Assembly: GCA_977020255.1 (NCBI GenBank)
Contig: CDROCS010003045.1
Coordinates: forward strand, 1 to 60,180
DNA: 60,180 nt
Source of the DNA: Obrimoposthia wandeli
Taxonomy: Eukaryota
Direction: 5' to 3'
In this document: piece by piece, positions 1,481 through 30,559 of the stretch
Numbering within the stretch: position 1 is the first letter of the stretch
Layout of the letters: each line of letters begins with the position of its first letter
Notes under the pieces: model-generated
The model's input: only the letters and a program-made list of their open reading frames with translations
The model's database searches: none
Told to the model about the DNA's origin: nothing
Position numbers and translations under genes: made by a program

Positions 1481-2806
1481 TTATTGTGTCATATTTCTTT
1501 TCCTATTTTCTATTACAGTATTTATGGATAATTCTGAAGAATTCTCATCTTTAGGAATAATATAAATAGTAAAAAGGGCCTGGGGGCCGCAAAAGTGTTT
1601 TCGTTGTTTTGTTTCTATCATTTTCGTATGTTTCAAAATTAAGATTCTCCATGATATTTGATTTATAAATGTAATTATTTCGATTACTATAACTATTATT
1701 ATAAGTTCTTTTTTATCTTCATTCCTTGAATGTTCTTTTTGTTTACCATAGTGCATTTTTAAACTTTCATTAAATGATTTATAGGATATTGTTTTTGTTG
1801 TTTTTAATTTTAATTTAATTCTTATTCTCTCTCCATGATTTCAACTTGATTTGTAACTCTGTAAATCTTTGATGTAAATGCTGTAAGTATGTAGCATTTG
1901 TTTTGTGGTTGTTTCTTTGACATGTTTCTTAATTTTTTACTGCTGACCAACGACCACAAAAAATTGTAGGTTGATATAGTTTGGATATCTTATTTCCTAA
2001 AAATTGTTAATTTTGTTAGATTTTATAACTTTCAAACTTTTGACTCCATTGTCTGTACATTATTGGTTTATTAGTGATTACGCATTCTCTATTGTCCATA
2101 ATTATTTTCTGGATATCTATATTTTCTATGGTTAAATTTGTTTTAGTTTGTGTATTTTCTAATTGTTTTCTTGAGTCTTTCCAAAAATTAGCATTATTTC
2201 TTTCTATATCTAATTTAATGAGGGCTTTATCTAAATCATCTATTTTAATTGAAATTTCCATTTTATCATTATTTTATGTTTTGATATATAATTTGCTGTT
2301 GTTTTTAATATTGATGCTAGGTATATGTGAGTTTCTATAATTCTTTCATAGAGTGTTATATTTTTTTAATTTCTGACTTAATTCTTATTTTATATTGTGT
2401 TTCTGTTCTTAAAAATGGTATTGTATATTTTTGTGAATTTATTCCTGAAATAATTATATTTTGTTTTCTATCTGTTTGTGTGATTTGCACATTTCCTGTT
2501 TTGTTTGTAAGAAGAGAAATTTTTAACTTTATTGATGTGATTTCAGATATTATTGTTATTAATCCAAAAATATTTTATGAGATGAGTTGTTGAGTCGTAT
2601 TTATTTGTTTGTTGTTGTATGATTGATTGATTGTCATTTATGTTTGTTGCGTTTACTTTCAGTAGGTTATATTTTATTGTAAAATATATTATCAATAACA
2701 TCATTATTTTACCAATTTCTTTCATTGACATTTTTATTGTATTTCTGGTTTGATGACTCAAAATAGTTTTGTTTTTTGTTTTTTGTGAGTTTTTTATTGT
2801 CAACAT
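1481..2806 (-). pseudogene. Frameshifted type-I membrane protein with FN3-like domain(s) downstream of integrase
   Basis: Signal-like MKEIGKIMMLLIIYFTIKYNLL; manual translation 2540-2350 gives ITSIKLK...KYTIPFLRTETQYKIRIKS (FN3 L-x-x-x-T-x-Y pattern); IMIKW and GRWSAV further on; TM ELIIIVIVIEIITFINQISWRILIL in ORF 1481..1756. Confidence 0.5.
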
Positions 2807-2819: not shown

Positions 2820-5800
2820 TTATCGTTAGTTGATCTTAAGTTATATTTGTGACTTTTTACTTTTGTATTCTCCTCAGGTATTTCTCGACATCTGTTTATA
2901 TGTGCTCTTATTTCTTTTGATTTTGGTTCATTATCTAGTTTAGCTGTTATGTTGGTTACGTTGGTACTAATGACTGTATATGGTTTTGTATGGTTTTGAT
3001 AATTTGTGTGACAATCCTACATTAATTTGTGGATTGTGAATCATCACTTTACTTCCGCTTTTTATATTTGATGGCTTAGTTCTTCTATCATAATATTCTT
3101 TGTAATTTTCTTGTATGTTTTTTACAAATAGTTTAGCTTTTTCGAATACTAGTTTTATTCTTTCTCTAATTTCTATTTTATATTCAGGTATTTCTAAGTA
3201 TTGTGTATTAGGTTGTAGTAATGTTAGGTCAATAGGCATTTGAGGAACATAAGATAAAAATGTGTTTCTCCTGTGGATGCATGTACTGATGTTCTATATG
3301 CAAAAAGGCATGGATGTATGTGTAAATCCCAATCTGTTTGGTTGTTGTTTGTGTATGATGCCATCATATCTTCTAGGGTTCTATTAAATCTTTCTACTAA
3401 CCCGTCAGTTTGAGGGTGATATGGTGTTGTATTGATCTTTTATGTCAAAAATTTCAGCTATTGACGCTAATACATTATTTATAAATCCAGGTCCTTTGTC
3501 GGTTAATAATTTTCGAGGTGCACCGAAAGTAAAAATAATTTTTTCGACTAAAACCTTCGCGATGGTTTCAGCCTTATGATCATGTGTTGGAAAAGCCTCT
3601 GGCCATCTTGTAAAATAATCAGAAAATACTATTATATATCGATTTCCTCGGGGTGTTTCAGGTAATGGTCCCATTACATCCATGGCAACAGTTTCCATGG
3701 GGCTGATGGATAAGGTATTGGTTTTAAAGGTATTTTTGTGGTACGTAAAGTATTTTTCCGTTTAAGACATATTTCACAGGTTTTACACCAATTTGTTATA
3801 TCTTTTTTCATGTCAATCCAATAGTATTTTAAATTTAATCGTGAATGTGTCTTTTTTGATGATAAATGTCCTCCTAGCGCTCCATTGTGATATTGAAGAA
3901 GTAATTGACACTGAATTTCTTTAGGAATAACTAGTGAATATAGATTTTTGTCATTTAAATAATATAATATTTCATTACTATATTTGTATCGTGATTCGTG
4001 AATTTTTAAATGTTTTCTTAATTTTTCATCTGTTGGTACTTCGTTTGTGCTAATGTATTTAGTTATTTGCTGAATTTCATTATCTTTGCTTTGAAGTTTA
4101 GTAATTACTTTTTTTATCATATTTAGCTTGAATTATTGTAAAAAGATTTAATTCGATGTCGTTTGCAGTTATTTCGTTTATTTCTTCTCTTATTCGTGAT
4201 AGACAATCTGCATTAGCGTTAGATTTTCCTTTTCTATATTTTATTTCAATATCATATTTTTGTAAAATCAATGCCCATCTCATTAATCTAGATGTTGTAT
4301 CCTTATGATTTAAAAGCCATTGTAATGGTCTTTGATCTGTGTAAACATAAACCTTTCGACCTAATAAGTAATGTTTAAAATGTTCCATTGCGAAGCAAAT
4401 AGCTAGGCATTCTCTTTCTATCGTTGAGCAATTTTTTCATGTTTTTAAGACCTCTGCTCACATATGCTATCACATGATCTTTTTCGTTATTTTCCTGTTG
4501 TCCTAAAACTGCTCCTAACGCATAACCACTGGCGTCAGTCATAACTAAAAATGAGTTATTAAAATTAGGATATCTAAGTATAGGTTTTTTCGATTAATTT
4601 TTGTTTTAAATATTCATAAGATTCTTGTTGTTCTTTTTCCCATTCAAATTTTTTCATCTTTTTTAATAAGTTTATTTAATGGTATTGTTATTTGTGCGAA
4701 ATTTCTAATAAATCTACGATAATATCCTGCAAGCCCTAAAAATTCCTGTATATTTTTACTGTTTTTGGGATTGGAAAATTTTTAATCTTTTCTACATTTC
4801 TCTCGTCTGGTTGTATTCCTTTTTGCTGATACAGCATGTCCTAAGTAATTTACTTTATCTTTTATCCATTCACATTTCTTTGGTTTTAGTTTTAATCCTG
4901 CTACCTGTAATCTAAAGAATACGTTTTCTAAATCTTTTAAATATTCTTCAAAATTTTTTTAAAAATAAGAATGTCGTCGATATATACCATTACATGATCT
5001 GCATCCATTAAAATATGGCTCATACATCTCTGAAATGTTGCTGGAGCTCCGGTTAATCCAAATGGTAAGACATTGAATTCATACAATCCTTCTCTTGTTG
5101 AGAAAACTGTTTTATATTTATCTGACTCCTCAATTTCTATTTGCCAGTATCCACTCTGTAAATCTAAAGTTGTAAATACTTTTGCATTTTTTAGTTTGTC
5201 TAATATTTCATCAATTCTTGGCAGTGGATGAGTATCTTTGTGAGTGATTTCGTTTAGTTTTCTGTAGTCTACGCAAAATCTCAAAGAACCATCTTTCTTT
5301 TTTACTAAAACAACAGGTGATGTCCATGCAGAAAAACTTCTTCTAACAATTTCATTTTCTAACATTCCTTTTATTTGTCTTTGAGCCTCATCTCTGTAAG
5401 TATATGGAATTCGGTAGGGTCGTTGTTTTATTGCTGTGTTTGTTGTTAACGGAAGATTATGTTTTATCAAATTTGTTCGACCTAAATCGTATTCATTTTT
5501 AGCAAATATTACATAATATTTTTCTGTTAAAGTTTTAAGTTTTGATTTTTCATAATCATTTAATTTGATATCGTTAAAATTTATCGTAGATTTATCTTCT
5601 ATTTTTTCATTATCTATTAATTCAATATTTTCAATAACACTTATTTTTCCAAGACGTACTCCTTCTTTGAGATGAATTTCATTAATGTCTGCATTTAGAA
5701 TTCTGATTGGTATTGTGTTGTTTTTTATTTTACAAATTATATTTGGCAAAACGTAGTTCAAGGTTTCTTGTTGATATTTATAAGGTTCAAATAATACATA

Positions 5801-6397
5801 TTTTTCTGTGATTATGTTAGTTTCTAGTTGTAACATTGTTTCTGTTCTTGGTTGGAGAATGATATCTCCTTTTATTTCTAACTCGTATTCATTTTTGGCG
5901 TTAGGTCTGTAAATGTCTTTTATTTGATTTTTTTCAAAATCAAAGTGGAAATTATTTCCTAATTTTCTTAATGTATCTATTCCTATGATCATTTGGCAAG
6001 GACAATTTTTCATGATTTTTGTAGGTATTTTTATGAATTTATTTCCTATTTTAAAAAGACAGTCTAATTTTCCTATTATATTTACGGGTTGACCGTTTGC
6101 TGCTGTGACTTGACTATTTTCCTTAAGAAGAAGTAATTTTTGTTGTGTTTTTAAGAAAGATTCGTCTAAAACTGTTACGCTTGATCCTGTGTCAATTAAA
6201 GCTTTAAGTTTATATTCGTTAATTTCTACTTTTACATATGGTCGTTTGTCGTTATCTTTTTGATTTATTGTATATATTGTTGGTGCAGTTGGTTTTTGTA
6301 TATTTGTTTTATATATATATTTTTCTAAATCAGGATATTGTGAAGATTCCGCTTTTTCTGTTTCTTTGGTACTTGTAATTTTTTGTATATTTGTTTC
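2820..6397 (-). pseudogene. pol: Ty3/gypsy Pol: aspartic protease, reverse transcriptase, RNase H, integrase (frameshifted)
   Basis: PR KALIDTGSS (DTG 6193-6185); RT FCVDYRKLN, LDLQSGYWQI, LPFGL, VYIDDILI; RNase H TDASGYALGAVL, TDQRPL, NANADCLSR; IN GHLS/CKTCEIC, AMDVMGPL, LLTDKG, YHPQTDGLVERFNRTL. Confidence 0.96.
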
Positions 6398-8333
6398 TCA
6401 CATTTCATTTGATAATGTGTTTACTATGTTTTGATGATGATTAAAAATAAGGAATTTTGCCAAAAATGGGAAACATCCTAAGATTAATTTCCATGTTAAT
6501 CCTCCAACTTTATAAATATAATATGTTGATAAAATTTGACTTAGAAGAATCTTAAAGCAAATTAATAGAGCATATATTCCAACTAATCCAGAAAATGCTT
6601 GTCCAAAAATTAAAAAATTTTCCCATATTTTTGACATGGTGTTTTTAGTGGCTTTTATAAAATGATTTGGAGAAAGTAATAAGTCGTAATCAGGACGGCT
6701 AATTCCGTCAGGTACTGATCTTTCTATGATTTGTGTTAAAATTTTGGATCTTATTTGTGGAAATAAAATTTATTTTCTTAACTTATCTATATCTTTCTGT
6801 ATATAAATTCCTTTTGTGTTTAATTCGTTATCTGTTTGTATATTGATGTCGTTGCTGAGAGTGGTTAATTGTAATTTTTGTGGTTCTGCGACAATATCTC
6901 TTCTTGGAAGTGAAATCCAAATATCTTTTGAAATTTGATAATGAGGTGCCATTATGTTTGAGCAGTTTATTTCTTTTATGCTAAATGTGTTAAAGAGTAT
7001 GATTCTAGTGATTGGTTCTACAAATAATGAATTGTTTTTGTAAAAAATTGGTAATTCTTTTGTACATTTTTGGTGATTTCTTATGTTAACTATTACTTTT
7101 TTACATTGATAAGTGTATAACACTACTCCCATTACTCTTCCAAAAGTACCGTCAGCTAATGGTAATAATGGTGTTATTAATTCTGGGCTAGTAGCAATAA
7201 TTGCCAATTTCGTTTTTAATATTTCTTGATTTAATTTACAAGCATTCATTATGGTTTCTCTATATATTGCTTCTATTGTCATTAGTCCTTTGTGATAAAA
7301 ATAATCTAATTTATTGTTAAAATAATCATAATTTTTAATATCGAATTTAGTTGGTGTCGTTTTTGCATTATGTATTTTTTCATTACTTAAATATATTCCT
7401 TTATAATTAGTTGTATAAACAGAGTGTCCACATCGGGATTCCTCTTTCTTTTAATAAATCGCATTCCCTGAACCTTGTTCAATAGACATTAATATAGTTG
7501 GAGTTGATGTTTTTCGTATTTTTCGAGTTCTATATTTTTTGCGTATGTCCTTTGGAATTTGTTGATCTAGTTCCGGATCATCTCTAAATCTTTTTCCTTG
7601 AATTATTTGAAAAGTTTCTGATTTTAAATGTATTAATTTACATTGATCCATTTTTACTTTTTAGTAAAGTATTGAAGAACCCGTGTTACAGTGACCTATG
7701 TTTGCTTCACAAAATGGCATTGTTACCATTGTGTTTGTGGAAGGATCGAATGTTGCTTTAAAAGTTCTTAGTTCGACTTCAAAATTTTTAATAACTACTA
7801 AACCACTTTGCTTAACTCTCATTACGACATAAGTTCCTGTTGTACATTCTCCATCCGATTTAATCTACAATTTTTTTTTACCTACAACTGATATCATTTG
7901 TTGAATTATATTATTTTTCGCCGCTCGGACTTTAATTTCTCTATCTATTCTCAATTCTCCTGTTGCGAAAGCATCTTTACAATTTAAAGCGTCAACTATT
8001 ATTGGTGTTTTTCCTAATGCTGGTTTTCCTATTGAATTGTGACTATGTTGTCCACAATATGTTATAAATGTCTCTACATGTACTCTACAAATCTAAAACT
8101 TCTGCATATATGAAATCTGTTTCCTGATATACTTGATACAACTTAGTATTTTTGATTTTTACCTCGTTTGGGTCAGCGTCTGCACATTGCTGTAAATCCA
8201 TTAAAGAATATTTATTTTGAATTTTATATTTTGAACAATCATATGCTTCTAAAGCATTAATTGGTTTTATCATGTTCATAATTAGACATATTGTTAATAT
8301 TATCTGAATAATTTTCCATAATTTTTTCATCAT
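6398..8333 (-). pseudogene. env: Chuvirus-like (class III, gB-type) envelope glycoprotein, between gag and pol
   Basis: Signal MMKKLWKIIQIILTICLIM; AYDC..SL.D...C; CRVHVETFITYCGQHSH; DGEC; CGHSVYTT; FNNKLDY; CKKVIVNIRNHQKCTKELPI; FVEPITRI; LRK*ILFP; C-terminal hydrophobic WENFLIFGQAFSGLVGIYALL. The Cys pattern matches chuvirus G as I recall it. Two frameshifts and three internal stops. Confidence 0.85.
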
Positions 8334-8370
8334 TTTATTAAGATTATTTGTATTTTTAAAATTTTAGTTT

Positions 8371-10150
8371 TTAGATTTTTTGTGTTTTACGTTTTTTCTT
8401 GTGTTTTACTTTCTTTTCTTGTGTTTGAGTAGTTTGGTTTGTTTTTGTGATTGTATATTTATTTTTTTGTAATGTCAAACAACCATCTCTAAACATGTCT
8501 CCAAATTCGGATTGTAAGTTTGTTCTATTTGTTTGTGGTTCACTGTTATGGCATTGTTGGTGTATTTCTCTGTAACGATTATCCATTTCTTTAAGTCGTA
8601 ATTTTAACAATGCTAATTCATCTGTGTTTGGAGTTGTTTCTGCATTTTCTATAGTGTGGATAGGGTTTCTTGGGGTATATTGTCGATCTTGAGTACTGTT
8701 TTTGAACTTGTGGTTGCTGTGTTATTGTTGTGTTTCCAAATTGATTCATCATTGTGTTTAATTTTCCACAGTCATCAGTGTTGTGATTTTTCATATTACA
8801 AATCTTACAAAATTTTGTATCGATATTAAAATATCTATTTTGATTATTGTCATAATTGTTTGGTTTATTGAAGTTATTATTCATGGTAGTGTATTATTAC
8901 TTTGTCTATTTATTAATTTTCTACAAGTTTCAATTGTGTGATTGTCTTTTTGCAAAATCTGCAAAATTTTATGTTATAATTTTCGACAATTTTCTATTGT
9001 GTGATTTTGGAGTCCACAATTTGTGCATTTTTGAAAAGATCTTTGTGTAAATTGTGAGTTTGCAAAATTTATATTTGTTTGGTTTCTATAAAAATTATTT
9101 ATTGGTGGTCTAAATTGTTGAGGATTTTGAAAATTATATTGAGTATCTTGGTTAAAATTCCTAGTTTGGTTGTAGTTTGGTGGCGTTTGTGGTCGTTCTA
9201 TTTTTTCAAAAGATAATGCTGAAACCTCGGTTTGCTGTATCATATTTAGTCTTGCTTCTACTAGCTGAGCTTTTCCTATAGCCTGTTGAAAGTTTTCTAC
9301 TTCTAGTAATGCAGGGTGATCTCTAATTTTATTATTTAATCCATGTAAAAATTGATGTAAAAGTAATCGTTCTCTTTGTGCTTCTTCTATTTCGGGAAAA
9401 GATTTTAATGCAAGTCGTCGTAATTCGACTGCGAATATATTTGTGGGTTCTCCTACATGTTGCTCTCGTTGTCTAAATTGATTTAAGTAGTTCTGGTCGG
9501 ACTGTACTCCTAAAACCATATTTTAGAAATGTTGGACTAAGTGTTCCCATGTGTCTTTTTGCAGATTTGTTAGGGCAGTGCCTTTTAGGTATGCTGGAAA
9601 AACTCTAAGTTTTTCTAGGTCTGTCCATTCGAATGCTTGAGCAAAAGAATCATATCTATTCAAGAATTCTGGTAAAGATGATTTATCGCCATTAAATGCG
9701 TCTAGTGGTATGTTTAATCTATGATTTACCCTTTTGATGTACTTCGTTTATTTGTTCGTTATTTATTTCTATGTTAGGTGGTACTGGTTCTGCCACTGTT
9801 TCTGATGTTTCTGACGAGTTGTCTGAGTCAGATGTTTGTGGTAAGGATAAACTTTCTGTATCCGAATTTGATGTTAGGTTTTGGTTTTCAGAGTCGGTTG
9901 AAATTAAGCGATCCGTGTGTTGGTGAACTAACGGAGTTTCAGGGAAAAATTCGTTATTGGTTCTAAAATTTATCTGGGATTTAGGTCTCTGTGGTAGTGT
10001 TTCACTTGTGTTAGTTCTTACTAACCTAGTTTGAATGCGTCTCCAGTGAAGATTAGCATTACGTTTAGATTTTGAAATCTTTGTGTATTGTTCACTATTA
10101 TCCTGCGTACTGGGTCGAAAATTAATTTACGTGTTTATATATTCTTGTCT
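8371..10150 (-). pseudogene. gag: Gag with two CCHC zinc knuckles (frameshifted)
   Basis: AFNGDKSSLPEFLNRYDSFAQAFEWTD..AYLKGTAL; QREQHVGEPTNIFAVELRRLA; FLHGL; knuckles CTNCGLQNHTIENC and CKICNMKNHNTDDC; coiled-coil and basic C-terminal extension. Confidence 0.87.
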
Positions 10151-10768: not shown

Positions 10769-10877
10769 TTAAAATAATAATGAAAACTCCTTGCAAAACC
10801 TCTGGCGGTATGTACCACAAAGTTAAAAATAATAATGAAAACTCCTTGCAAAACCTCTGGCGGTATGTACCACAAAG
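10769..10877. repeat. ~54-bp tandem duplication in the 5' leader
   Basis: Two copies of TTAAAATAATAATGAAAACTCCTTGCAAAACCTCTGGCGGTATGTACCACAAAG. Confidence 0.9.
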
Positions 10878-10913
10878 TATTTTTACTTTACTTTAACTAT
10901 CACAACCAAGAAA

Positions 10914-11017
10914 TTATTCTAAAAAATACAGTATAATTTTATTCTAAAAAATACAGTATAATTTTATTCTAAAAAATACAGTATAATTTTATTCTAAAAA
11001 ATACAGTATAATTTTAT
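10914..11017. repeat. 25-bp tandem repeat x4
   Basis: (TTATTCTAAAAAATACAGTATAATT)n. Confidence 0.9.
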
Positions 11018-11325
11018 TAAAAATGAATTAAAACGTATATTTAATATTATAAACTATGAGGGACTTATTCAAAATAGCACTTATTAATAAATGTATTAAA
11101 AAATATTATATTGGGGGTATTGAAAGCACAATGTATTTAAAATTTTAAAGAAAATATACTTATGTAAGATCGTATATATTCAGTATAAATTATTTTAAAA
11201 TACTAAAAAAAAATGTTATTATGTAATACTGAAATAGTAAGATAAGAATAATAAGTAATAATAAGTTAAAATAGTCAATAACAATAAAATAAAAACAAAA
11301 CACAATAAAATTACCTTTATGTGTT

Positions 11326-11343
11326 CACTCTTCGGGCTCACCA
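11326..11343 (-). promoter_or_regulatory. Putative primer-binding site of the gypsy element
   Basis: Minus strand TGGTGAGCCCGAAGAGTG upstream of gag, TGG start; resembles tRNA-Trp/Arg 3' complements, cognate tRNA not determined. Confidence 0.5.
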
Positions 11344-12340
11344 CTATTAATAAATAGAATAATAAGTAATTTTATTATCAATTTTTATTGTCAAATCAAA
11401 TCAATAAATCAAATCCAATTGTTGTTTCTGTAATAGAATATAGTCCTGATTTCGAATCAAATTATTGTTTCAGTAATAGATTATTGTCCTGAATTCGAAT
11501 CAAATTATTGTTTCAATAATAGATTATTGTCCTTGAATTCGAATCAAATTATTGTTTCTGTAATTATAATTATTTTGAAGTTAATTCAATTTTGTATTTC
11601 TTCAATAATTTTGCTTTTTATGAAAAAATTGTGAAACGAGGCAATACTAATAATTGTGATTACAAGTCTGCAAGTAGACTTTTATATATGCCATTACATG
11701 TACGTTTTGGTAATATCACAAAGTTAAATTGGGCAGGTGAATTTGGTAGTGTGTGGCCTTCATTGATAATTTTCGCTGCCTGCTTGAATTATTATTAGAC
11801 ATGTTGTGGAGGAGAGATCTGGGTAGAGGAAGCTGGTATTTCCTTTGGCTCTGCACACACACACACACATGTGCAGCCAGGGAAATTTCACCGTCTTTCA
11901 AAATTCTGACAGGTGGAAAATGCCAAATTAAACACACATACACTGAGAACACCAATCATCACACATGTGCACAATGGATAGGTGAGTGAGTACAGAGAAT
12001 ACGTGAGTGAGTACAGAGAATAAGTGAGTGAGTACAGTGATTTCCGCTGTGTATGTGTGTTGAGTGATGTCGGCTGTGTGAGTGTGTGTGTTGAAATGTG
12101 CACTTGCACACCAACATCACATGTCGACGATATTCGTCGGCACATGAAAGGGGATATCTTTCCTTCTTTTCTGGTTTTTATTATTGTTATCTCAGGCTTC
12201 GCGGAATCCACTGCGAAGTTAGAGATAAATGGGGCCATCTCCCTGATGAGCCCGGTAGACGAAACGGGCTTTTCCTGTCGGAGATTAACCACTCTAAACT
12301 AAAATGCCAGTAAGTGCATATTTTATCTAAATAGAACTTT
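11344..12340 (-). repeat. Candidate 5' LTR containing ~43-bp x3 (11445-11570) and 21-bp x3 (~11981-12040) tandem repeats
   Basis: Directly upstream of the PBS, GC-richer than its flank, CA-microsatellites. No partner LTR in the window and no clear TG..CA ends. Confidence 0.35.
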
Positions 12341-13595
12341 TCCCTAATTAAGGAAAGTTCTTAATTAATTCCTTAATTAATTAATTCTTATTTTAATTTT
12401 TTTTATATATATATATATTTTTAATTTTAAAATAAATATTTATAAGATATTCCCAACATATATATATATATATATTTAAATTACAATCATAAAATAATGT
12501 AATTTTAAAATTAATAAATGTTTAAGATATTTAACTTAGAGTTATAATAATTAGGTTTGTATATACATTTGTTTAAATACATCAAAAGGATAATATAAAA
12601 ATCGCGGTAATTTAAAAATATGTTATAATTTATTACTTTACTGACTTTTATCAAAATTTAAGTTATTAAAATCTAAAGGGTGTGTTTAAAGCATAAATTG
12701 TAACAACAACAAAAGTACAAGTGAGTTAATATCTTGTAATATTCTATCATTTTTAACATTTGTATTTTAGTAATTATTAGTTAAACTTGAAGTATTCTTT
12801 TTTAAATAAATTATTTATATTTTAAAAATATCAAATAGTACTTGTTAATATGAATTGCATTGCGTTTGAAACTATTTTCGTCATTGTTTTAATATATTAA
12901 TTGTAATTAATTTGTATTTATTTTCTAAAGTTACAGTCAGATTATAGAATAATGATATTAGTCTGTCGGATATACATCAATGGATTCGATGAATAACATG
13001 TGGTAAGATGAATATTTATCAAATTATTAATTATTTTATAATTAACATTATGTTTAAAATCAAATTTGTTTAATTAAATCAAACAAATGATAAAAAATTT
13101 GGCAAAAATTTAAATTAAAAAAATATTTTTATTTTAGAAAATTACAAGTATTTTTCTCCAGGACCCATTAAAGTATGCATGACATGTAATTTAAGTTATT
13201 TAAAGAAATTTTACCATAATTCTTTAGATGCGTAAGCCTGGGAAAAACTTTGATATAAATTTTCACATAGAATAGTGTGTGTATTATTACGTAATACATT
13301 AAAATTTGTTAAATTTAATATCTAACAAATTAAATTGGCACAAATTTTAATTATTATTTTGAAGAAAACAAAATTACAAGTATTGTTCTGAAATAACTTT
13401 TAATGATTAGAAGAAATTCTAAAATACTTCATAATTTACTTGATTAGTATGAAAATAGATTCAAAAATAATCATGTGTACGTACTCAATATGTGATAAAC
13501 TAATAAAAGCTTTGAAAAATAACAAATATATTTTAAAATCTACTGAAAACTGGATAAATATAATTTATACTTTGTATATTATTAATTCAGTAATT

Positions 13596-14050
13596 TTACT
13601 CAAAAAAATACACGTTTAATTTTGAATTATATCTACGCATGGTCGTTGTTTTCAGTTCATATTGTTGGAGTTTCAGATAAAGTCTAGGATCATCTTCCAG
13701 GGCTTTAACGTCAGTTCTATAAGAGTAGAACTTACACTGGCCTATCCTGGTCGAGATTTCAGAAATAACTATATTGTCTCGTATTTTGTATGAGTGGTGC
13801 GTGCCTTGTTGTATGTACAATGAACGTAAATGAATCAAAACTATATGGCTTTGTGTTCGGTAGGTTAGGCTGATATGAGAGACTTGAAAACAATTGTCTG
13901 GGTATATATATATGTATATTGATAGCAGCTTTGACAAAGGATAGTCGATTCTTCACATAAAGTAGATCTAATTCGTTAATTACAACTGAAATTGAGAACT
14001 TATAATTCAATGCACTCAATATGAAAATCAACAAATATTACGCTAGCTTC
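13596..14050 (-). mobile_element. Possible Penelope-like RT relic
   Basis: Degenerate ELDLLYVKN and LTYRTQSHIVLIHLRS resemble the PLE motifs FLD.l.r and YRKpt.t..ylhf.S. Weak. Confidence 0.28.
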
Positions 14051-14649
14051 TACCACAACCTTAGAGTAATTTATGACAAGTGTTGACTTAACTGAGGTGA
14101 ATGTAAACTTAACCTTATATAGTTTGATCATTCTAGTTCGTGATTTCTTAATATGCTTATGCTAGTGTGTTAGGGTGTCTTACATCTTTTAAGAGGGTCT
14201 GATTTGTTCCAGTAAATAGCCTCTTGTTAAGTTGGGTTGTTTTATCAGTGTCCTGTTCAGTGTCCCGGTTTTTGTATCTGTTTTCAATATAGATAAGATA
14301 TAAAAACTATATTCATTGTAAAGCACATGCAGGTACTAATATTCCCAATAGCAATACACCGTAAGGAGTCTTCTACTTCATGCAGGACCGATGAATCTCC
14401 AGGGAGATTCTTTATGTAATACACTGTTTATGGTTTTCCAGGATGTGACTGCATTTTCTGACTATTTCCAAAAGTATTTGAAAGGTAAATATTATATTTT
14501 CTGGTATTTCAATTTCTTCCAAAAAGTAATGGCAAGACATTTTAATTGGGTAATTTATTTTATAATACATACATCCACTTTTCAATCCTCTCCAACTTGT
14601 CGGCAGTCAGAGCATATACTCGATCAAGTATTGTATTCACAGTTTCTGA

Positions 14650-15350
14650 AACTCCACGTAATCTAAAGCTATTCCATTGGGCACAAGTATGTTCTAGGAC
14701 TTTGCGATTCGTATTTTAATCTTCTTTCTTTCTGCAGCTGAATATTTGTAAGCCTGGAAAAGTTGGTTGCTGTCGGTATTCTATAACCTGAAGGTCCCTT
14801 CTCTAATGACATAGAGTTCTACTATTTTGTCACTATTATCTTTCCGTGTAGTCTGGACTAGATTATGATATTTGTCCTTTGCTTTTGCTGTAACTATTAT
14901 TTTGACTCATATTACTGTTAAAAGTTCAGTCTTGCTCACTGAATATTGCTACTGTCATCCATAACCGTAGTAGTTTTCTCCATGGCAATAGTATCTCCGT
15001 CATTTAGGACAAGTTTAAGTGAAGGCTTATACTTCTCGAACTACCATATCGTATCTATGTAATGTCCAGTGGAGCATTTTATAGCATCCTACTATAGCAT
15101 GGAATACAGTCTTGGGTGATGGTTTTTTATTTATTTTACACCCATATCGGCAACAATTTAGACTTTCATTTACGGCTTGGGTCAGGCAACTCCAAAAGTC
15201 TCTGATCTTCGGGATTCGTTTTTTACTAATGATATTAGTTCAAGTCTAAAGGTTTGTTGTAATCCTCCCCCGATCTGCGTTTGCCGTTTAGAAGACTTGG
15301 ATTATAGCCTTGATACTTAGGATACCGAATCCTCCATGATCTTTATGTTT
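14650..15350 (-). mobile_element. 3' part of a non-LTR retrotransposon with restriction-like endonuclease (R2/R4/NeSL-like), degenerate
   Basis: HGGFGILSI, CCRYGC...HH...GC, HRYDMVV and KAKDKYHNLV resemble the GGxG, CCHC, RHD and K..KY..L motifs. Confidence 0.4.
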
Positions 15351-15639
15351 TATTAGCATTTTCCTTAATATTTATTTAAAAAAATGTTACTTTAATATTT
15401 TATTTAAAAAAACTTGTTAAATTAAAATTTGTTAAATTAAAATTTGTTTAATTAAATCAATAGAAACCATAAAAAATTTTGCACAAATTTAAAATATATT
15501 ATTTTTTGAAATTATAAGTATTTTTATTTTTTACCAGAACCTCTTAAAGTATGCATGACCTTAAAGGTATCTTTGAACTCAATTTTCATAGGCAAATACA
15601 ACCATGTAATAAAATTATCATGTTTGTTCCTAATCTGAC

Positions 15640-16408
15640 CCTTAACTTTCGAACGACGATAAAATTAACATTATTAAACTCATAATAGATTGACAAATAC
15701 AACCATGTACTTGAAACTATGAAATTCCAATTTTTTTTAACCCTTCATCTATAGACAACCATATCTATATGGATGAATTCGTCTTCTAAAGATGATTACA
15801 ACCATGTATTCAAACCTTGACATTTAAAACTTGATTTTGTCTTTAGCCTGACTCTTTGATTTATGGACGACCATACTTTATGTGGTGAATTTTACCTTCT
15901 AAAGATGATTCCAACCATGTACTAAAACCTTGATATTTAAAAACTTGATTTTGTTTTTAGCCCGACCCTTGATTTATGGACGTCCATGACCCTTTAGATG
16001 TGATGGACAACCATATAGCTTGACCTTTAATTATACCTTCCAAACCTTCAAGTCAAAACTGACCTTAATCTTGAACCTTTGATCTATGGACGACCATGAC
16101 CCTTTAGGATATGTTGGTTGACCATAGACGGTCATGACCATACCTTAAAACCTTCAAGTCAAAACTGACCTGACTTATTCCTTGATCTATGGACGACCAC
16201 AACCCCTTTGGGTATGTTGGCCGACCATAGACGGTTACGATTTCATACCTTCAAACCTTTATAACCTTTCTGAGCCAGACCCGTATGGTGTGGCCAGACA
16301 CCCCTATGGCGAGGCAACATATACCCCTATATGGTGTGACATCCCTATGGTGTGACACACTTTAACATGGTGCACAAGGGGGACCCTCCTCCGAAAGTGG
16401 TCTAGACT
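15640..16408. repeat. Degenerate ~105-120-bp tandem units plus short CCCTATGG repeats; possible TE terminus
   Basis: Repeated CTTCTAAAGATGATT.CAACCATGTA, GATTTATGGACG.CCAT and AAACCTTCAAGTCAAAACTGACCT; ends GGTCTAGACT. Confidence 0.6.
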
Positions 16409-17037
16409 CCATCAAAGTACCTACTTTTCTTAAGTGTCATATTGACCACAGATAATTAATATCGATATAGCAACTTTCAATACTTCTTATGCATAGTCAT
16501 ATTTTTAAAATAATTGTCATTTAAATGTTTAGGTTTACAAAAAATGGTTTGATTAGATTATACAAAAATAGTAAAAATATTGAATGAAAAATACTATTAA
16601 TTCAGACCAAAGATTAAAAAAGTCTTCTTTCATTTCAAAGCTTCCCGATTAGTGAGACACTAAATTTGTTTCTAGAAATGTTTTTAAAAAATCCATAAAT
16701 ATGTCGATGACCCACCTTGAAATGTCTATTGTATTTCTATTTATGAGATAAAATCAGGCTGAAAGTTGTCGAAATACTTTGTACAAGAAACAAGGCCTAT
16801 CGATCAGTTACAGTGCCTTTTTGGTTATTTCTTTTGGACCGACATTTTGAAATACCGTCTATATTATTTTTCCTTGATCGAATCAGATCTAGCTTTTAAT
16901 CGATCGGTTCCGTTTCTGCCGTTCATTAAGTCATAAATATTTTTAAAAAAAATTTAAATAAAGAAAAAAGAAGTATATATTTTGTTAGTTTAATAAAAAT
17001 AAAATATAAATTTATCAATAAATTTCGTAATTAAAAG

Positions 17038-17184
17038 TATTGTCGCTATCTGAACAACATCAACGCTTCATTTGCCAGTGGCGGCTTCCAAATCTTGCCA
17101 GAGGTTTTCTTACGAAGTTGTCGTGTAGCACAAATTGTCAATTATCTTTCCCGTTTTCGTTTTGGCTTCCAAATACATTCCTAA
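17038..17184 (+). other. Probable exon of an unidentified host gene
   Basis: GC-richer island after an AG; open frame YCRYLNNINASFASGGFQILPEVFLRSCRVAQIVNYLSRFRFGFQIHS*. Product not recognised and strand not certain. Confidence 0.25.
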
Positions 17185-18732
17185 ATCAAATCTCCATTAA
17201 AAACATAAAAATACAATGCCAAATCAGTTCCCTAAGCCACGATTTATATTAACAAGAGATAATCTTGAGCTATTTTGGACTACGTTTATTATTATACAAG
17301 ATATGTTCTAATTAGAATAAAATCCTGATAGAATTTATTAATCACAGTTCAACTTTATCTATTTTTAATTCATGTGATCTTCGACTTTTATCGTTAAAAG
17401 ACGGTATTGACTGACTGATGGTATGATAAGTATTATAGTAACTATTAGATAGAACTAAATATTAATTGTTCATATTTAAAATGTTAATTTTCGATTAGTA
17501 CCAAATTTATGGGAACACTAAATATAGAACAGACTGGTCTACACAATATGTAATTATCATGTATTTTATAAAGTGAGCCAGATTGAAATAATGGCCTTCT
17601 TCTATACTCAACGATTAAGAATCATGCTTCTGTTTTCACATACTTACTTTATATTACATTTTCTGACACAACCTGAACCTACACTAAAGAGATTTGGCAG
17701 GCAAGATATTTTTCCGTTCAAAAAGATGTAAAAGAGTAAAAGACCATGCATGTTAAACAAATCTCAAAATGGTATTCTGGTTAAATAAGAAAGTTTGTCG
17801 AGAATAAAATCTGGATTCAGTTCTTCTAAATAATCTAATAATCTTACAGGAACAAAATAACGAGACTTTAACCCAACCAAAAACCACTGATACAGCTGAA
17901 ATAGTATTGAAGAACCAATCAGTTTCTTCGGGGATACAATTTTCTTTTATAAAAGGGTAAATTTTGTTTCTTGTCTAGGTCGGGAATTTTTCTAGTCGAG
18001 CCTCTGGATGGCGTGTATGTCAAATATTTATACTTCTATTTAGTAATATATATATTTTTCATATTGAAATTAGATTTGGTAATTTATTTGACTGAAGATA
18101 ATCGGGATGAAAAATGTCAAATACTCTCGCCACACCCAATTTCCCATGCCGTCTTTTACAGTGTAATTACTTTCTCTGTATCGTGTATAAGAGAACTAAT
18201 TGAAAAGGATTTTTTTGTATATATATATGCCCAGGTTATTTGTGAGAATTTACAGTAATAACGACCCATACAAGACAATTGATCATCCAATTTATTTTAA
18301 TGTTTTACAAGTTCTGTAATTAAAAAAAATGAAATAATTTCAAACACACATACACACCTATTGCTTCATGAGGGGGCAGAGATATTTGTCTGAAATAATC
18401 GTCGCCTTCCAGCGTTAGTTTTTCTTTTATTTTCTGAGCAATAATCTGAAAGAAAATTGATTAAAAATCCTTTTAATATCTAAATAAAGTAAATACTCAT
18501 TCAAAAAGTGATTCTTAACACAAACCTTCATTGACGTAGTTGGCATTTTAAAAGCATTCACACATTACTGTCATTTTGATTAGAAATCAGATTCTGGGAG
18601 CCAGATGGATTTGAAGATATTGAAGATAACTCAAATTTACATAAATATGCTTTTACTCTCTATTTCACCCTAAAAATAATGCAAAGACTGAAAGTTGTAA
18701 TACCTCATAAATTTCGTTGTAAAACAAGCGAC

Positions 18733-19041
18733 TTTTAGATCGACTTCTTATTAATGTCTCAGACAGTAAAGGCATTATTAATGTATAATTAATTATTGAA
18801 AAATCAATACTGTCTGAGACTGCTTGGCAGTCAATGATGACAAAAGGATTTAAAAAGTTTGAAGATTTATTGCCAAGGATTTAGAATTTAAATTTGAAGA
18901 AGTTATGGATTGATATCAGAAAATCAAATCAAAAGGTTTGTAAAGTTTTCTAGAAAAGTTGGTAAAGGTTTTATATTAATAAAAAGATTTTAGAAGTGAT
19001 GCGTTTATGATAATTATATTCCGATGTCCGTTTACGAAACA
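18733..19041 (+). repeat. 5' LTR of BEL/Pao element
   Basis: Near-identical to 25689-26012; ends GAAACA. Confidence 0.92.
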
Positions 19042-19042
19042 A

Positions 19043-19053
19043 TGGTAGCAGAG
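19043..19053 (+). promoter_or_regulatory. PBS complementary to initiator tRNA-Met
   Basis: TGGTAGCAGAG 1 nt after the LTR; complement of the animal tRNA-iMet 3' end CUCUGCUACCA. Confidence 0.88.
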
Positions 19054-19093
19054 TGTATAACGAGGATATCGATAAGAAAAAAAAGAAGCATGC

Positions 19094-20600
19094 TTGATTT
19101 ATGTTGTCGTGTTTCATCCAGAAACTTATGAGATGAGCACTAAGAATCTACGATTTCTGCAAAATGCTACAGGACACTATTATGGAAGGTTTGGAAAATA
19201 CTTTAATGACAAAATTGATAAGGTAAACTTCAATATCCTTAAAATGAAAATGATTAGAGCACCAACAGCAACAGTAATCAGACTGATAGTTGCAGATAGT
19301 TGTGATACCTTCAGTGATAATTTTTTATTTGATTTTGATGTTAAATTTTGTGATATTAAATTAAATAAAAAATCTTGTTCCTATAGTTCCTGTGCTTTAG
19401 AACAACCAGGCGATAAGCGGGGGTTCTGGAGCATAAGGACACAAAATAAAATGATAAAGAGGATAAACATCCTCCTCCCTCTAATATTTTGATTGTTGGG
19501 GATAGAGTCCGACTTATGGAACACACGAAGTGTATTAAAGCTAGAAATGAACGGGAAAAGGTAAAATATATAGGGGTGAACGTGATAGATGATGTGAAGA
19601 GCGGGGGACTAAGATAGGAACAGTTTTGGCTTCAGAAGCATGGGGAGAGGTTAGAGGAGAATGACTTGGTAGAAGAAGGGGATCAGATCAGAGTAATGTT
19701 TAAATTACTAGGGGGAATGAAGAAAGAAGAAGTAGAGGAAACAGGAACAACATTTTCAGAATTAATACTAAGATTAGTAAGTCAACAAGAAAAGGGTGAA
19801 GTGTTGAAAGCACTAAATAAAGTGCACTATAAGAATAGAGAAGCAAGGGAGATATTCAGGGCGTTACCACGAATTATTATAAAAAGAAAGCTAAACATCT
19901 AAGAAATAAATTAATAAAGAAAGCGAATGCGGCACGAAGGCTAGGACAGGAAAATTGGAGGAACAAGAAGATTTCAATGTGCAGATTAATGGAGCTATAA
20001 AGGATGTCTGGATAATGGGAAGCGAGAACACCATCAGACATGTAAAACAGAAGATAGATGCAGTCATAAAAGGAGAGAGTTTTACAATAAAAATAAATAC
20101 AGTTTTTTATTCGGATGGGATCTTAGATCAATGTCTGATCTCAGAAGGTTTGAAAGTGAAAGTGATTAAAACATTGGTAATAAGTACAGAAAAGGATGAT
20201 GCAGAGTCTATCGCAGCGACAGAAATATTTGATAAGGAGTTAGACTGGGAAAGTTGCGATGAAGATGGCAAAATAAATACTTCGTGGTATGTTTTGTTTT
20301 TAACGGGTCAGAGATAATAGTTGAATTAAGTATAAACCATTCGGGTGGTAAAGCCAGTAGGGAGGTAGAAAAACGGTTAAAATTAAAGGAGGGGAAATTT
20401 TGGCTACATAGAGAAGGAAAAAGGTACATAAGGAAAATATAAGAATTTATAAATGACAAGATATACGTCATACGCCTAAAAGGAGGGTCTGAAATTGAGG
20501 AAAAGGAAATAACCAGGTGTGACTTCAATATTGCGATAAACAATTTCTTGCCTGGAAGATGATAAGAAAAAGAAAAAAGAAAAGCAGAATATCTATGAAG
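19094..20600 (+). pseudogene. Pre-Gag region with three ubiquitin-like domains (19532-19716, 19970-20179, 20281-20487)
   Basis: QFWLQKHGERLEENDLVEEGDQIRVMFKLLGG; FNVQING..ENTIRHVKQKI..LDQCLISEGLKVKVI; FVVCFVFNGSEIIVELSINH..FWLHREGK..KIYVIRLKGG. Confidence 0.7.
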
Positions 20601-20602
20601 AA

Positions 20603-21720
20603 ATGTATAGGTCATTAAGTGAAATCTATGAGAAAAAGATAGAGACGGCGTTTCAAGAGTATGACAGCAGAAAAGAAGAAAGATGGGTTAGCGAGCAGAA
20701 GAAGATGGAAAACAAATTCGATGAAATACAAGGGAAAGTATGGGAAAGGACAGAGGACACGAAGCGAAAGCTCAATGGTAAGATAGGGCCAAGGAAACAA
20801 AGGTATAAGTCAGTTGAAGAAAATTCAGCTCCCAATTTTTAGAGGAGAAGTACAAAAGTACGAAAACTGGCGAGCTATATTTAACAGAGTGATCGACCAG
20901 TCAACGGTGGATAAAGAAGAGAAAATGCTGCATCTACTGCAATATGTGGACAGAGAACCATTAAGGTTAATTGATAGCTTGGGATACTCAGCAGAAAGCT
21001 ATGATGAACCGCTGAAGATATTGTCATTAAGATACGGAGGGACGGACAGGAATTATATACAGTTGATGGAAAAGGTGGAAAGGTTCAGGTAAATAAGGTG
21101 GAACAACTATCGGGATTTGGATATGTATAGCCAACTATTACAAAAGTAACCGTACGAGCACGAGCACTAGGAAAATAGGAGGAATTAGGGGAGGTTTTCT
21201 ATGTGAAAAATTGCTACAGAAACTACCAATGTTAGGAACAGCAGCATGGTCAAAATGGTTAGAAGCAGGAGATATACAAAAGAGTATAATAAATTTAGAA
21301 GAATGGATACAACAAAAGGCCGAAAGTTGGCGAATAGCCGAGGAAATAGCGAGTTGCAGCAGAGAAGCACCAAAATATAAAAATAATGAAAGAGCAAAAA
21401 CCTTCGTAGAAGCGGTAAAGCAAAATGATAGAATGATCTCTGGACAATTTCAAAGGAAGGGGAGAAAGATGATAAAGTGTCTAAGGTATAAGAAGGAGCA
21501 TTACACAGACCAATGTAAAGAATTGCAGAGATTATCCCTAGCAGAGAGACGCTGGTGGGTTGAAAAGGAAAGTTTATGTAGAAATTGTCTGCGAAATAAT
21601 CATTACGTAAAACAATGCAAGGTGGATAAGTTGTGTAAAATGAGGAATCGCACCGAAAAACACGATTGGATATTGCATGTGGATGAAGAGCGTAGTAATC
21701 AGACGTGCCCACAATCCTAC
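20603..21720 (+). pseudogene. gag: BEL/Pao Gag (coiled coil, DUF1759-type region, three Cys-His motifs)
   Basis: LPIFRGEVQKYENW..FNRVID..EKMLHLLQY..LSLRYG; CLRYKKEHYTDQC, CRNCLRNNHYVKQC, CKMRNRTEKHDWILH. Confidence 0.9.
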
Positions 21721-24700
21721 TTAACAAGAGGGACAAGAGAAGAAACTACATTCTTGGCATTAAGAATCGTACCGGTTATGGTACGGCATAGAGGCCAAGA
21801 ATTGGTCAACGCCTTGTTAGATGATGCCAGCACACGCTCATATATTAGTAAGGATTTGTCACGAACGCTAAGAGTGTCAGGACAAAAACAAAATATTCGG
21901 GTGGAGATTATTGGAGGAAACGAGGAAACGATGGACTGTGCTGAAGTAAACATAGAATTAGAGAGCACGGATTGAAAATATGTGAAGCTAATCAACGCAT
22001 TAACAGTACCAGAGATTACCGGGGACTTAGAGGTAATAAATTGGTCAGTAAAAGCAAAAACGTGGAGGCATTTGGAGGGTATAAAATTCCCAGCGGTAAA
22101 TGTAAAGAGAAAAGTTGAATTATTACTGGGTGCGGACAACCTCGAATTGCAGAGTGCCCTTAAAGAAGTGAGAGGAGGACCAGTTGCACTGATAGAAAAA
22201 TTGACATCGTTGGGATGGACTTGTATTGGTCAGGTTAGAGGAGCTAATATAGGTAGACAACACACGAATTTGGCTCACACCTATTTTGGAACCCAGATCG
22301 AAACGGAGGAATTTAATATAGGAAAATTCTGGGAAGTAGAAGCCGTACCAAATCTCCAAAGTAAGTAAAGTTATAACGACAAAAAGTTATTAAAAGAAAC
22401 ACGACTCGGAATTAAAGAAATTGAAGGAAGGTATGAAGTCAGCCTACTGTGTGGAAAAATCGTTTATGTTAGATGGGATGGTAAAATGGCGAACCAGCGA
22501 CAGAAGAGTTTGGAGAGAAGATTAGACAAGGACACGTGGTTAAGATCGGAGTACATGGCCGTCATCGAGAGCCATATCCAGAAAGGTTATATCAGGAAGG
22601 TACCCGAAGAAGAAGTAAAATGACAATGTGGTTGTGACCACATTTTCCGGTCGTCAAGCGATAAAAGGATACAATGAAGGTGCGAATAGTGTTTGATGCG
22701 GCGGCGAAGGTGCGAGGCACAAGTTTGAATGATTTAATTCATTGTTGGCCGAAGTTGCAAGGAGATTTAGTCACGATCTTATTAAGATTCAGAAAAAATG
22801 CTGTAGCATTAGTTTGTGATATATCAGAGATGTATCTACAGATAAAGATAAAACGTGGCTGAGATTTATATGGAAAGACCGCAAACAAGTAGACACATAC
22901 GAATTTAATCGGGTAGTTTTTGGGATCAATGCGTCACCATTCTTAGCACAATTAGGGACTCGAATAAACACTGAAAGGTTCGTGGGAGTATGAAATAGGG
23001 CTATCGAGACGATATTAAAGTCCACATACATGCATGACAGTTTGAATTCGGTACCGTCAGTCGAGGAGGCGATACAATTACAACAAGACCTACTGCAGGT
23101 ATGGGGCGGTGCGGGAATGAGTGCCAAAAAGTGGCTAAGTAGCAATCACCGAGTTAATCAACAAATCGCCACAGCAGATCAAGCGAAGGTCTTACAAATT
23201 GCGGATGGCGAAACGATGCAAAGTATAAAGACGTTAGGAGTGGCGTAGAACGCGCAGGTGGAAGGTTTTTGAGATGACGACGAATGTAGAGATGTTAACG
23301 ACCATTACAAAGAGGACATTTCTAAGTCTTCTGTCAAAAGTATTTGATCCATTAGGGTTTGCTGGTCCGATAGTAATACGGGCGAATTATTATGCAGGAG
23401 CTATGGCTTTCAGGAAGGAATAGGATGAGAAGTGGAATGGGGTATTAAAGAAGAGAAAAATCCATTGGGTAGAAGACGTAAAGTTACTGAATAAGGTTAA
23501 AGTTCCCCTTGAGATGGATACGGGCGGGAGTAGCTAGTAAATGTTCGATACATATATTTGTAGACGCTTCTGAGCAGGCATATGGAGCAGTAGATTACTT
23601 GAGAAATGAAGAAGCGGAAAAATAGTAGTAAGTTTCATAGCGTCAAAAACAAAAGTTGCGCCTTTAAAAGTAAAAAGTATACCGCGTTTAGAGTTATTAG
23701 CTGCAGATGTCGGTTTTAAATTGGCAAAGGTACTCACGAGTGCGCTAGACTTAAAGTTAAAAGAGGTAAAGTTTTGGCTCGACAGTCTGAACGTACTGTG
23801 GTGGATACGCCAGCCAGGGCGGTATTATAATGCATTTGTTGCTAATCGCGTAGAACTTATAATGGAGGACACAAGTATAGCTCAGTGGAGGCATGTACCC
23901 ACAAAGTTAAACCCAACGGATATATTGTCAAGAAGAGTCGAGGTTCATCGACTGAGCCAAGATAAATTATGGTGGGAAGGTCCCGAGTTCTTATTAGGCT
24001 CAGAGACAGCGTGGCCGAAGCAATCAACACAAGGAGAAATGTCAACAGAAGTTGAAAATAAAAGAAAAGTGATAGTGACACATGTTACGCAGAAGATCGA
24101 TGGGTTCGACATAAGCAAGTATTCGACATTAGTAAGATTACAAAGATGCATGGCGTGGATAATACGCTTCACAACCAACGCACAGTTAGATCGAGATAGA
24201 CGATTATTGAAGGAACTGGAGATCACAGAGATCCAAACAGCCACAAAGCGGTTGGTAAAAGATGAGCAAAGAAGATATTATCAGGAGTATTATAAAAGGT
24301 TAGAACAACAGAAGCCGATAGAGAATAACAGTGGACTAATTAAATTGAATCCATGGATAGATCTAGATGGAATAATCTTGGCAAATACAAGAATTATCCA
24401 TGCACAATTTTTGGATTATCAAGCTAAGTATCCGATTATATTACCCTACGAAAGTTGGATCACAAAATTGATAGTAGAAGCCCAAAACAGGAAGTTGCAT
24501 CATTATGCAGGCGTGCAGCATGTATTGAGTGAGATCAACAAGCAATATTGGATCCCAAAAGCAAGACGATTAGTAAGAAGCGTAGAAATCAAATGTGTGA
24601 CCTGCTAAAAGAGTAAGTCGGGTGGAATGTCAGCGGCAATGGCTCCATTACCGTATTTTCGTTTTGAAGAACTACTCAGGGCATTTGCGAACGTTGGAGT

Positions 24701-25547: not shown

Positions 25548-25675
25548 ATAGGACGATGAAAAATAAAAGAAGGTGACGTATGATCCGGCATGATCTGAAA
25601 CTGCATCAAAGTATGATCCAGCATGATCTGAAACGGTATCGAGGAAAGGCTAGGTTAAGGTGATCTAGTTAGATC

Positions 25676-25688
25676 AAAGGGGTTAGGA
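25676..25688 (+). promoter_or_regulatory. Polypurine tract
   Basis: AAAGGGGTTAGGA immediately before the 3' LTR TG. Confidence 0.6.
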
Positions 25689-26528: not shown

Positions 26529-26707
26529 CAGTAATTATTCACCTATAAGGGGTCCCACCTATAAGGGTGTCCGGTCACCGAAAATTTCACGCTTCACCTA
26601 TAATAGTACCTTTCCAAGCTTTTAAATAATGCATCTATAAGTGATTCGGTGTCGGTCTCTCTCAAAAACATGTTTTAATGAATACCCTTACAGGTGAATA
26701 ATTACTG
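26529..26707. mobile_element. Tc1/mariner-type MITE (179 bp)
   Basis: TIRs CAGTAATTATTCACCT(A/G)TAAGGG, flanked by TA on both sides. Confidence 0.9.
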
Positions 26708-30546: not shown

Positions 30547-30559
30547 ATTATTAAATTGT

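Follow-up and report, generated by a model that had tools for sequence, protein, structure and literature searches.

A 60,180-nucleotide window of the Obrimoposthia wandeli genome (contig CDROCS010003045.1 of assembly GCA_977020255.1, 1.35 Gb) carries on its minus strand a Ty3/gypsy retroelement of ~14.2 kb, which extends from position 12458 to below position 1 and so runs off the window start, where the contig itself begins. We propose that intact members of this family probably make one polyprotein of ~2,900 residues, composed of Gag, an internal signal, a glycoprotein B (gB)-type Env with its anchor, protease, reverse transcriptase, RNase H and integrase (PR-RT-RH-IN, together Pol), a second internal signal, a second ectodomain and a second anchor. 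Six-frame translation of the window gave the order gag, env, PR-RT-RH-IN, second membrane protein, small open reading frame (ORF) and exonuclease ORF. An earlier note on this DNA, made from the sequence alone, had described a minus-strand order of gag, glycoprotein, linker, protease and RT, which the translation bore out. The element is larger than the stretch of 6013-10150 given there: it also has a 5' long terminal repeat (LTR) at 12458-11345, and the region from 4600 down to the window start holds RNase H and integrase together with three more coding parts. The copy in the window is dead and decayed, and the coding capacity of the family was read from its other copies.

A DNA search of the genome with window positions 5900-8400 returned 40 scored candidates, all of them family copies at 95-100% identity and all carrying the env-protease stretch. 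A protein search gave at least 104 scored matches at 91-100% identity; both numbers are lower bounds for copy number. We examined the best 30 of the 40 copies, including the window copy and its twin on contig C4659. The twin matches both the element (99.3% over the core) and the upstream flank (97% over 12000-18800) and was therefore treated as the same insertion, leaving 28 other copies as the independent set. These differ by a mean of 1.6% and form a star-like tree, which argues for a recent burst of amplification.

Env anchor and protease lie in one frame in 27 of the 28 copies (23 without a stop), and the last Gag knuckle and mature Env do so in 21 (16 without a stop), with six copies shifted and one without the landmark. 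Within Env and within Pol, control stretches were in frame in 20/28 and 14/28 copies, respectively, so the Gag-Env and Env-protease junctions are no more broken than ordinary coding sequence. Every copy examined has some break over the 5.5-kb core. One natural frame of 1,383 codons holds capsid, knuckles, Env and protease, and the longest open frame among the 104 scored matches is 2,889 codons, a length that would correspond roughly to the span between the gag start and the point where the last membrane segment ends. With gag, env and pol in one frame in most copies, the polyprotein suggested in the earlier note gains support.

That note had also considered expression of Pol by readthrough of a stop after Env, and a TGA at 6400-6398 on the minus strand does interrupt the frame between Env and Pol in the window copy. 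The stop was found in only 2/30 loci, the window insertion and its twin; 28/28 other copies have a sense codon there, and the relatives examined have no stop after Env. In four sequencing runs of one sample, possibly the source sample, more than 99.7% of the summed contig depth at the 6400 site reads otherwise in each run; these runs gave only low-depth joints. Because all 28 other copies have a sense codon at 6400, the family encodes a single Gag-Env-Pol frame and readthrough is refuted, with a likelihood that we regard as negligible. The env frameshifts, which the earlier note had likewise proposed to check for conservation, are also copy-specific: at six indel sites in the env region, at least 27 and up to all 29 of the other loci differ from the window copy, which identifies these indels as its own lesions. 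Insertion of env into one copy as a secondary event was rejected and has a negligible likelihood, as no point in its support was found, the env-protease stretch occurs in every one of the 40 candidates and the same order is seen in distant relatives; env is a fixed part of the family, in agreement with the earlier note, and not a nested insertion.

The Env ectodomain occupies 6620-8249 on the minus strand. With the stops of the window copy read through as X, it matched PF24664 (Monjiviricetes fusion glycoprotein) at E 3.6e-73, and the window Pol matched RVT_1 at E 5.9e-27 in Pfam; matches of this strength mean that the reading of Env and RT is not due to chance. Env of an unbroken natural copy matched PF24664 at E 8.8e-87, and an AlphaFold model of this copy with 115 aligned relatives reached a pLDDT of 89.8 and a pTM of 0.66. 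In Foldseek comparisons, the top match in the PDB was pseudorabies gB (E 6.3e-13, TM 0.41), with 38 of 38 rows shown being herpesvirus gB, and the top match in a viral library was a chu-like G (E 6.3e-42, with TM up to 0.68 among the first six). A search of Env against the PDB by sequence gave no match. The predicted structure thus sides with the class III assignment made previously from sequence, and we classify Env by its model as a gB/chuvirus-G-like fusogen. It contains 2 N-glycosylation sequons, and a sequence scan gave no furin-type motif.

Env is flanked by hydrophobic segments on both sides. Directly before the start of the mature domain lies an internal signal-like segment (8250-8333, minus strand; hydropathy peak 2.24), whose Met at 8333 is 38 nt beyond the end of the gag piece at 8371, close to the gap described earlier; the basic tract quoted with it is partly shaped by a break in the window copy. 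At the C-terminus, the membrane anchor (6401-6619, minus strand) comprises two moderately hydrophobic segments with peaks of 1.85 and 1.71, both noticed in the earlier note. The anchor is common to relatives, as seen in an alignment with P0008, which is labelled as coming from a bacterial bin, a label that we take as contamination. In the window copy, Env has indels near 8090, 7880 and 7455 and stops at 7867, 7663, 7453 and 6772. There is a further local indel near 8370; those near 8370, 7880 and 7455 are absent from nearly all other copies. The break near 8090 puts the signal segment of this copy in another frame than the ectodomain. The stops at 7663, 7453, 6772 and 6400 are where they had been placed. 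The single frame claimed from ~7800 to 4937 does run from the ectodomain to 4937, but it starts at ~8092 and contains a fifth stop at 7867-7865.

The remaining parts of the window copy are typical of a Ty3/gypsy element, all on the minus strand. The gag region (8371-10126) has a capsid domain, three CCHC knuckles and a basic tail, and is broken by stops and frameshifts. In a natural copy this region matched Drosophila Arc capsids (E 4.5e-4 and 6.6e-4) and HIV nucleocapsid (E 5.4e-4), and a Pfam scan of it gave no match at E 0.1. The linker and aspartic protease (5954-6397; protease motif at 6193) matched PF09668, PF13975 and PF00077 above cut-off. Reverse transcriptase and RNase H (4252-5305; PF00078, and PF17917 at E 2e-38 in the natural copy) are interrupted by a frameshift at 4937 and more breaks, and the integrase (2900-3918) has an H2C2 zinc finger (PF17921), a core (PF00665) and a GPY-type C-terminal motif assigned by position. 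The Pfam domain order of Pol (PF00077/PF13975, PF00078, PF17917, PF17921, PF00665) is PR-RT-RH-IN with gypsy-type RNase H and integrase, and Pfam scans of the element's Pol parts gave no BEL/Pao domain. On this domain content we class the family as Metaviridae (Ty3/gypsy), env-carrying and recently amplified. An RT tree was built from 8 RT cores from our own search for relatives, without named Metaviridae references.

Among 1.84 billion representatives searched, 1,319 were relatives of Env, and 20 of the best 150, picked mostly for length, were scanned for domains. Env was followed by protease in one chain in 12 of the 20 (one of them below the Pfam cut-off), five of which reach RT and RNase H; one of the 20 is a BEL/Pao-type pol-env fusion and seven show Env without Pol. 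P0158 is a complete Gag-Env-Pol-type case of 4,844 amino acids with ankyrin and C2H2 matches and an RT that is 72% identical. A metagenome locus, L038, has a complete 2,693-amino-acid Gag-Env-Pol ORF with capsid and knuckle at an Env identity of 27%. Related loci were found neither in viral contigs nor in prokaryote genomes, and at least one was among the metagenome matches listed. The order with env between gag and pol therefore recurs in distant relatives. Env retains 41-46% identity with relatives while Gag barely aligns, and relatives whose Env is 27-46% identical still have a continuous frame. Of 7 relatives examined, 3 have their closest Met 77-159 residues ahead of the Env signal core, which makes the signal internal in these; the lack of a Met within 77 residues in these three favours polyprotein processing. 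As separate observations, P0009, P0010, P0011, P0012, P0015, P0020 and P0158 each have two to five aspartic-protease-like domains, some of them after the integrase, and P0013 has a weak Bcl-2 match before Env.

The earlier note overlooked that the frame extends past the integrase into a second membrane protein (1484-2731, minus strand), which is in frame with the integrase and broken in the window copy. It consists of a signal-like segment at ~2731-2650, an ectodomain of ~300 residues, a transmembrane segment at ~1708-1650 and a short tail, with 8 N-glycosylation sequons in the natural copy. Integrase tail and signal-like segment share one ORF in 6/6 loci, two of which have a single ORF of 745-747 codons from the integrase core to the transmembrane segment near window position 1700, and open frames of at least 740 codons contain 38 of the 104 scored matches in the genome. 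Six relatives reach the integrase C-terminal motif (P0024, which ends before it, was left out), and in five of these a further 371-1,573 residues follow, with first a signal-like and then a transmembrane segment. Since P0010 and P0158 are close kin, the five represent about four lineages. The post-integrase ectodomains align poorly with each other, except between two relatives. Comparison of relatives at 49-72% RT identity indicates that the post-integrase membrane protein is conserved in position and not in sequence.

The proposed mechanism starts from what the copies, relatives and Env model display directly, namely gene order, shared frame, Env fold, the conserved post-integrase segment, two signal-like segments and two anchors; its processing steps draw on general knowledge of viral polyproteins. 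The growing chain would enter the endoplasmic reticulum (ER) at the first signal and be threaded there, and host signal peptidase would cut ahead of Env and of the second ectodomain, freeing the N-terminus of each. Env would come to lie in the lumen, halted at its anchor. Pol would form a cytosolic loop, held by the Env anchor at one end and the second signal at the other, until it was released by the protease of the element, and the second signal would send the last ectodomain into the lumen. A signal after the integrase makes sense only if Pol is cytosolic, and with Pol cytosolic, given that second signal, the hydrophobic segments at the end of Env should cross the membrane an odd number of times, which would reduce the uncertainty over topology raised in the earlier note. 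The protease would free Gag and the enzymes. Gag, Env and Pol would be made 1:1:1, and we infer that Pol would be membrane-tethered, reaching budding sites via the membrane and not as Gag-Pol.

Several observations weigh against this scheme. In the window family, the Env signal is preceded by a Met at a distance of 6 residues and the second signal by one at a distance of 1 residue, and this closeness makes separate initiation possible at both. Equal output of Gag and Pol is unusual for retroelements. Topology was read from Kyte-Doolittle scans alone, and in the window family the second signal is short, scoring 2.93 over 9 residues and 1.79 over 15 residues, the latter below the cut-off of 1.9 that relatives exceed. 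In one relative, P0159, the chain stops 20 residues past the integrase motif. The DNA frame could thus be continuous while most protein came from separate messages, with a spliced or prematurely ended gag message, and with env and the second membrane protein translated from their own starts. Such expression would solve the problem of the Gag:Pol ratio and suits the Met directly before both signals, and the env of canonical errantiviruses is described as a separate ORF in the part of PMC6431247 consulted. We nevertheless consider it improbable, given the three of seven relatives without a Met near the Env signal and the distances of 82, 56 and 37 residues between Met and second signal in three of five relatives. 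Separate messages would not require frame continuity, yet it has been kept between Envs as little as 27% and at most 46% identical.

The element could also move only within cells, with Env and the second membrane protein as passengers or as proteins that tether assembly to the ER, and without forming infectious particles. An Env with only 2 sequons and without a furin-type motif would be in keeping with this, as would the break found in every copy over the 5.5-kb core. In gB-type Env, however, a furin site is not always conserved, according to the available text of PMC13524379, and Env both folds confidently over its whole length and has stayed similar among relatives in which Gag barely aligns. 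We therefore judge a purely intracellular element rather unlikely. The single polyprotein remains our preferred explanation.

A more tentative extension of the polyprotein model concerns the second ectodomain. Possibly, one polyprotein supplies a two-glycoprotein envelope, in which the conserved gB-like fusogen before Pol would be joined by a fast-changing, host-like type I membrane protein after the integrase, perhaps with fibronectin type III (FN3) domains, serving as attachment protein or decoy, and Pol would be membrane-tethered at both ends. In herpesviruses, gB needs partner proteins. An Atlas neighbour search with the second ectodomain led to fn3 clusters at 0.87-0.89 with 143-156 shared features, which should be taken as a lead only, and what we take to be an FN3-domain motif is present in the window family and in the post-integrase ectodomains of 3/5 relatives. 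Pfam matches of the second ectodomain did not include fn3, also with a four-sequence post-integrase profile; this profile, built on a poor alignment, gave no PDB sequence match. A single-sequence fold reached a pLDDT of 29, none of 4,309 candidate homologues at similar lengths passed E 0.01, and an Atlas neighbour search with the second ectodomain of L038 gave no usable match. An FN3 fold is thus only a lead. A two-glycoprotein envelope, if confirmed, would mean that a retroelement divides attachment and fusion between two proteins, as herpes- or paramyxoviruses do, and carries a captured ISG20-like nuclease as well.

Two further ORFs follow the second membrane protein on the minus strand. The first (886-1299) encodes 127-138 amino acids, is open in 6/6 loci, gave only weak Pfam matches below cut-off and is probably a coiled coil. 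The second (1-720, running off the window start and broken in the window copy) encodes a DEDDh 3'-5' exonuclease similar to ISG20/REX4. It matched PF00929 at E 5e-7 and human ISG20 (1wlj) at E 3.6e-8 with the catalytic motifs aligned, and a long ORF covers the domain in 5/5 loci other than the window.

The 5' LTR (11345-12458, minus strand; 1,114 nt) starts with TG and has one change at its 3' dinucleotide in the window copy. Window 12458-11347 matched the 3' LTR in the twin contig (locus L031), which ends in CA, at 1019/1043 aligned columns (97.7%). Both flanks of the element are a (TA)n tract, so a clear target-site duplication (4-6 bp) is not discernible. At the LTR end, a primer-binding site (11332-11343, minus strand) matches the 3' end of host tRNA-Trp(CCA) over 12 nt; the tRNA-Trp 3'-end pattern occurs 60 times in the genome, compared with once for a reversed control, and ARAGORN called one pattern-bearing gene tRNA-Trp. 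On contig C5734, positions 143176-151119 hold a tRNA-type motif repeated in tandem every ~207 nt, with 36 matches listed; the single unit scanned was tRNA-Trp, the probable primer of the element. The 5' leader contains tandem repeats at 10771-11018 (55 nt x2 and 25 nt x4.2) in a region that differs among copies. Directly upstream of the 5' LTR, 12460-16425 belongs to another abundant repeat family, 83-91% identical to many genomic copies.

Other features of the copies were recorded in passing. The stop at 6772-6770, just before the end of the Env ectodomain, occurs in 10/30 loci (8/28 without window and twin) and is scattered on the copy tree. We rejected it as a sub-lineage marker, as it takes 7 changes on the tree compared with 8.7 for shuffles, 57/500 of which were as low; a mutation hot spot or exchange between copies may account for the scatter. 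Pairwise differences in the env region of L003-L030 were 0.5% at A/T sites; CpG sites reached 7.8% and the remaining G/C sites 4.3%, so that G and C have been lost strongly, with only a modest CpG excess. L023 has an internal 300-nt duplication at the env start, and large deletions in gag or pol are found among L003, L010, L017 and L013. L019 and L027, on one contig, carry in gag a 185-nt stretch identical to window 26526-26710, either a very recent small mobile element or an assembly duplicate. An isolated 172-nt piece at window 30545-30716, ~78% identical to the gag knuckle region, appears to be a remnant of a related family.

Elsewhere in the window, 18787-25944 on the plus strand is the decayed remains of an LTR element, ~7.2 kb long and with direct repeats of 185 nt, whose ORF pieces look BEL/Pao-like by eye. 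Large direct repeats at 37086-39916 and 52904-55833 (~15.8 kb apart) and long inverted repeats at 30961-34240 and 50142-60130 (18-26 kb apart) probably represent other transposons present in more than one copy. A COX1 that the assembly contains in several near-identical copies scored best under genetic code 9 (438 bits, compared with 425, 422 and 422 for codes 5, 13 and 4), which points to a flatworm or an echinoderm; the host is probably a flatworm, a choice made from features of the COX1 sequence. This COX1 very likely belongs with the window's contig, a link that we infer since bacterial-type sequence is present in the assembly too. Numerous oxidase genes of bacterial type, free of stops, and numerous copies of mitochondrial COX1 embedded in large contigs occur in the assembly; they are bacterial contigs and nuclear copies of mitochondrial DNA.

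The earlier note had offered the architecture as new, but the gene order and the Gag-Env-Pol fusion are already published. In the parts of PMC6431247 consulted (2019), the giant planarian gypsy elements Burro/GYPSM1 have env in frame between gag and protease in a single ORF, and resemble the present element in this ORF, in a Gag with three CCHC knuckles, in an env similar to mononegavirus fusion glycoproteins and in a flatworm host, which for the present element is probable. They differ in size (>30 kb and ~4,900-5,100 amino acids, compared with ~14 kb and ~2,900 here) and in their ankyrin, BIR, Bcl-2 and MATH domains, which had no match in the element parts scanned; the consulted parts mention neither a membrane protein after the integrase nor an exonuclease (PMC6431247). 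The element works like Burro and is not classed as Burro, as the giant size and the apoptosis/ubiquitin-related domains were not encountered. We would assign P0158 and P0013 to a Burro-like group from their domain content.

Elements with the order GAG-ENV-POL and a gB-type Env, termed errantiviruses, were published in 2026 from Platyhelminthes, Nematoda and Bryozoa, with nine flatworm elements listed (PMC13524379, in the text available to us). Judged by their description, the present element shares their gene order with env between gag and pol, the gB-like class III fold of Env, a Ty3/gypsy Pol and many recent copies. The available main text of PMC13524379 does not mention polyprotein, fused, single ORF, fibronectin/FN3 or exonuclease.

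Among other systems, BEL/Pao Anakin elements with a chuvirus G were set aside, since Pol here has gypsy-type domains and env lies upstream of it. Nematode endogenous retroviruses (NERV), as described by Sacco et al. in 2022, reportedly have a continuous gag-env-pro-pol ORF with accessory ORFs; we know of no second membrane protein after their integrase, and their host is a nematode. Their flipped env-pol order is cited in the consulted text of PMC13524379. Troyka, with its CG ends, does not fit the element (PMC12440569, in part), and the portion of PMC8532177 covered mentions neither an envelope nor a transmembrane segment. Atlas virus, a hookworm belpaovirus, encodes a single polyprotein of similar length (2,828 amino acids) with a receptor-binding and fusion pair, GN and GC, as given in the covered text of PMC9094657. 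Its Pol is of BEL/Pao type and its fusogen of class II, with both glycoproteins fused after Pol at the C-terminus, whereas here a class III fusogen precedes Pol (PMC9094657). The Juno/Vesta gypsy elements of bdelloid rotifers likewise have a captured 3'-5' exonuclease downstream of pol; according to the text covered in PMC5408684, their ORF3 is an RNase D-like DEDDy enzyme replacing env, whereas here an ISG20-like DEDDh enzyme stands alongside env.

A second membrane protein after the integrase of a Gag-Env-Pol element was not found in the literature text searched, and fibronectin type III did not occur in the papers listed by a search for it; figures, Repbase and some earlier papers lie outside it and could describe such a protein. 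As a variant on the published layout, the second membrane protein and the ISG20-like exonuclease that the element carries are its new features. The second membrane protein settles the likely topology and offers a clue to how the gB-type envelopes of retroelements might recognise cells. The present work adds copy-level proof of a continuous frame in a compact family with more than 100 recent copies, and this family is a much simpler subject than the 30-kb Burro elements in which to study Pol packaging by a retroelement in the absence of Gag-Pol.

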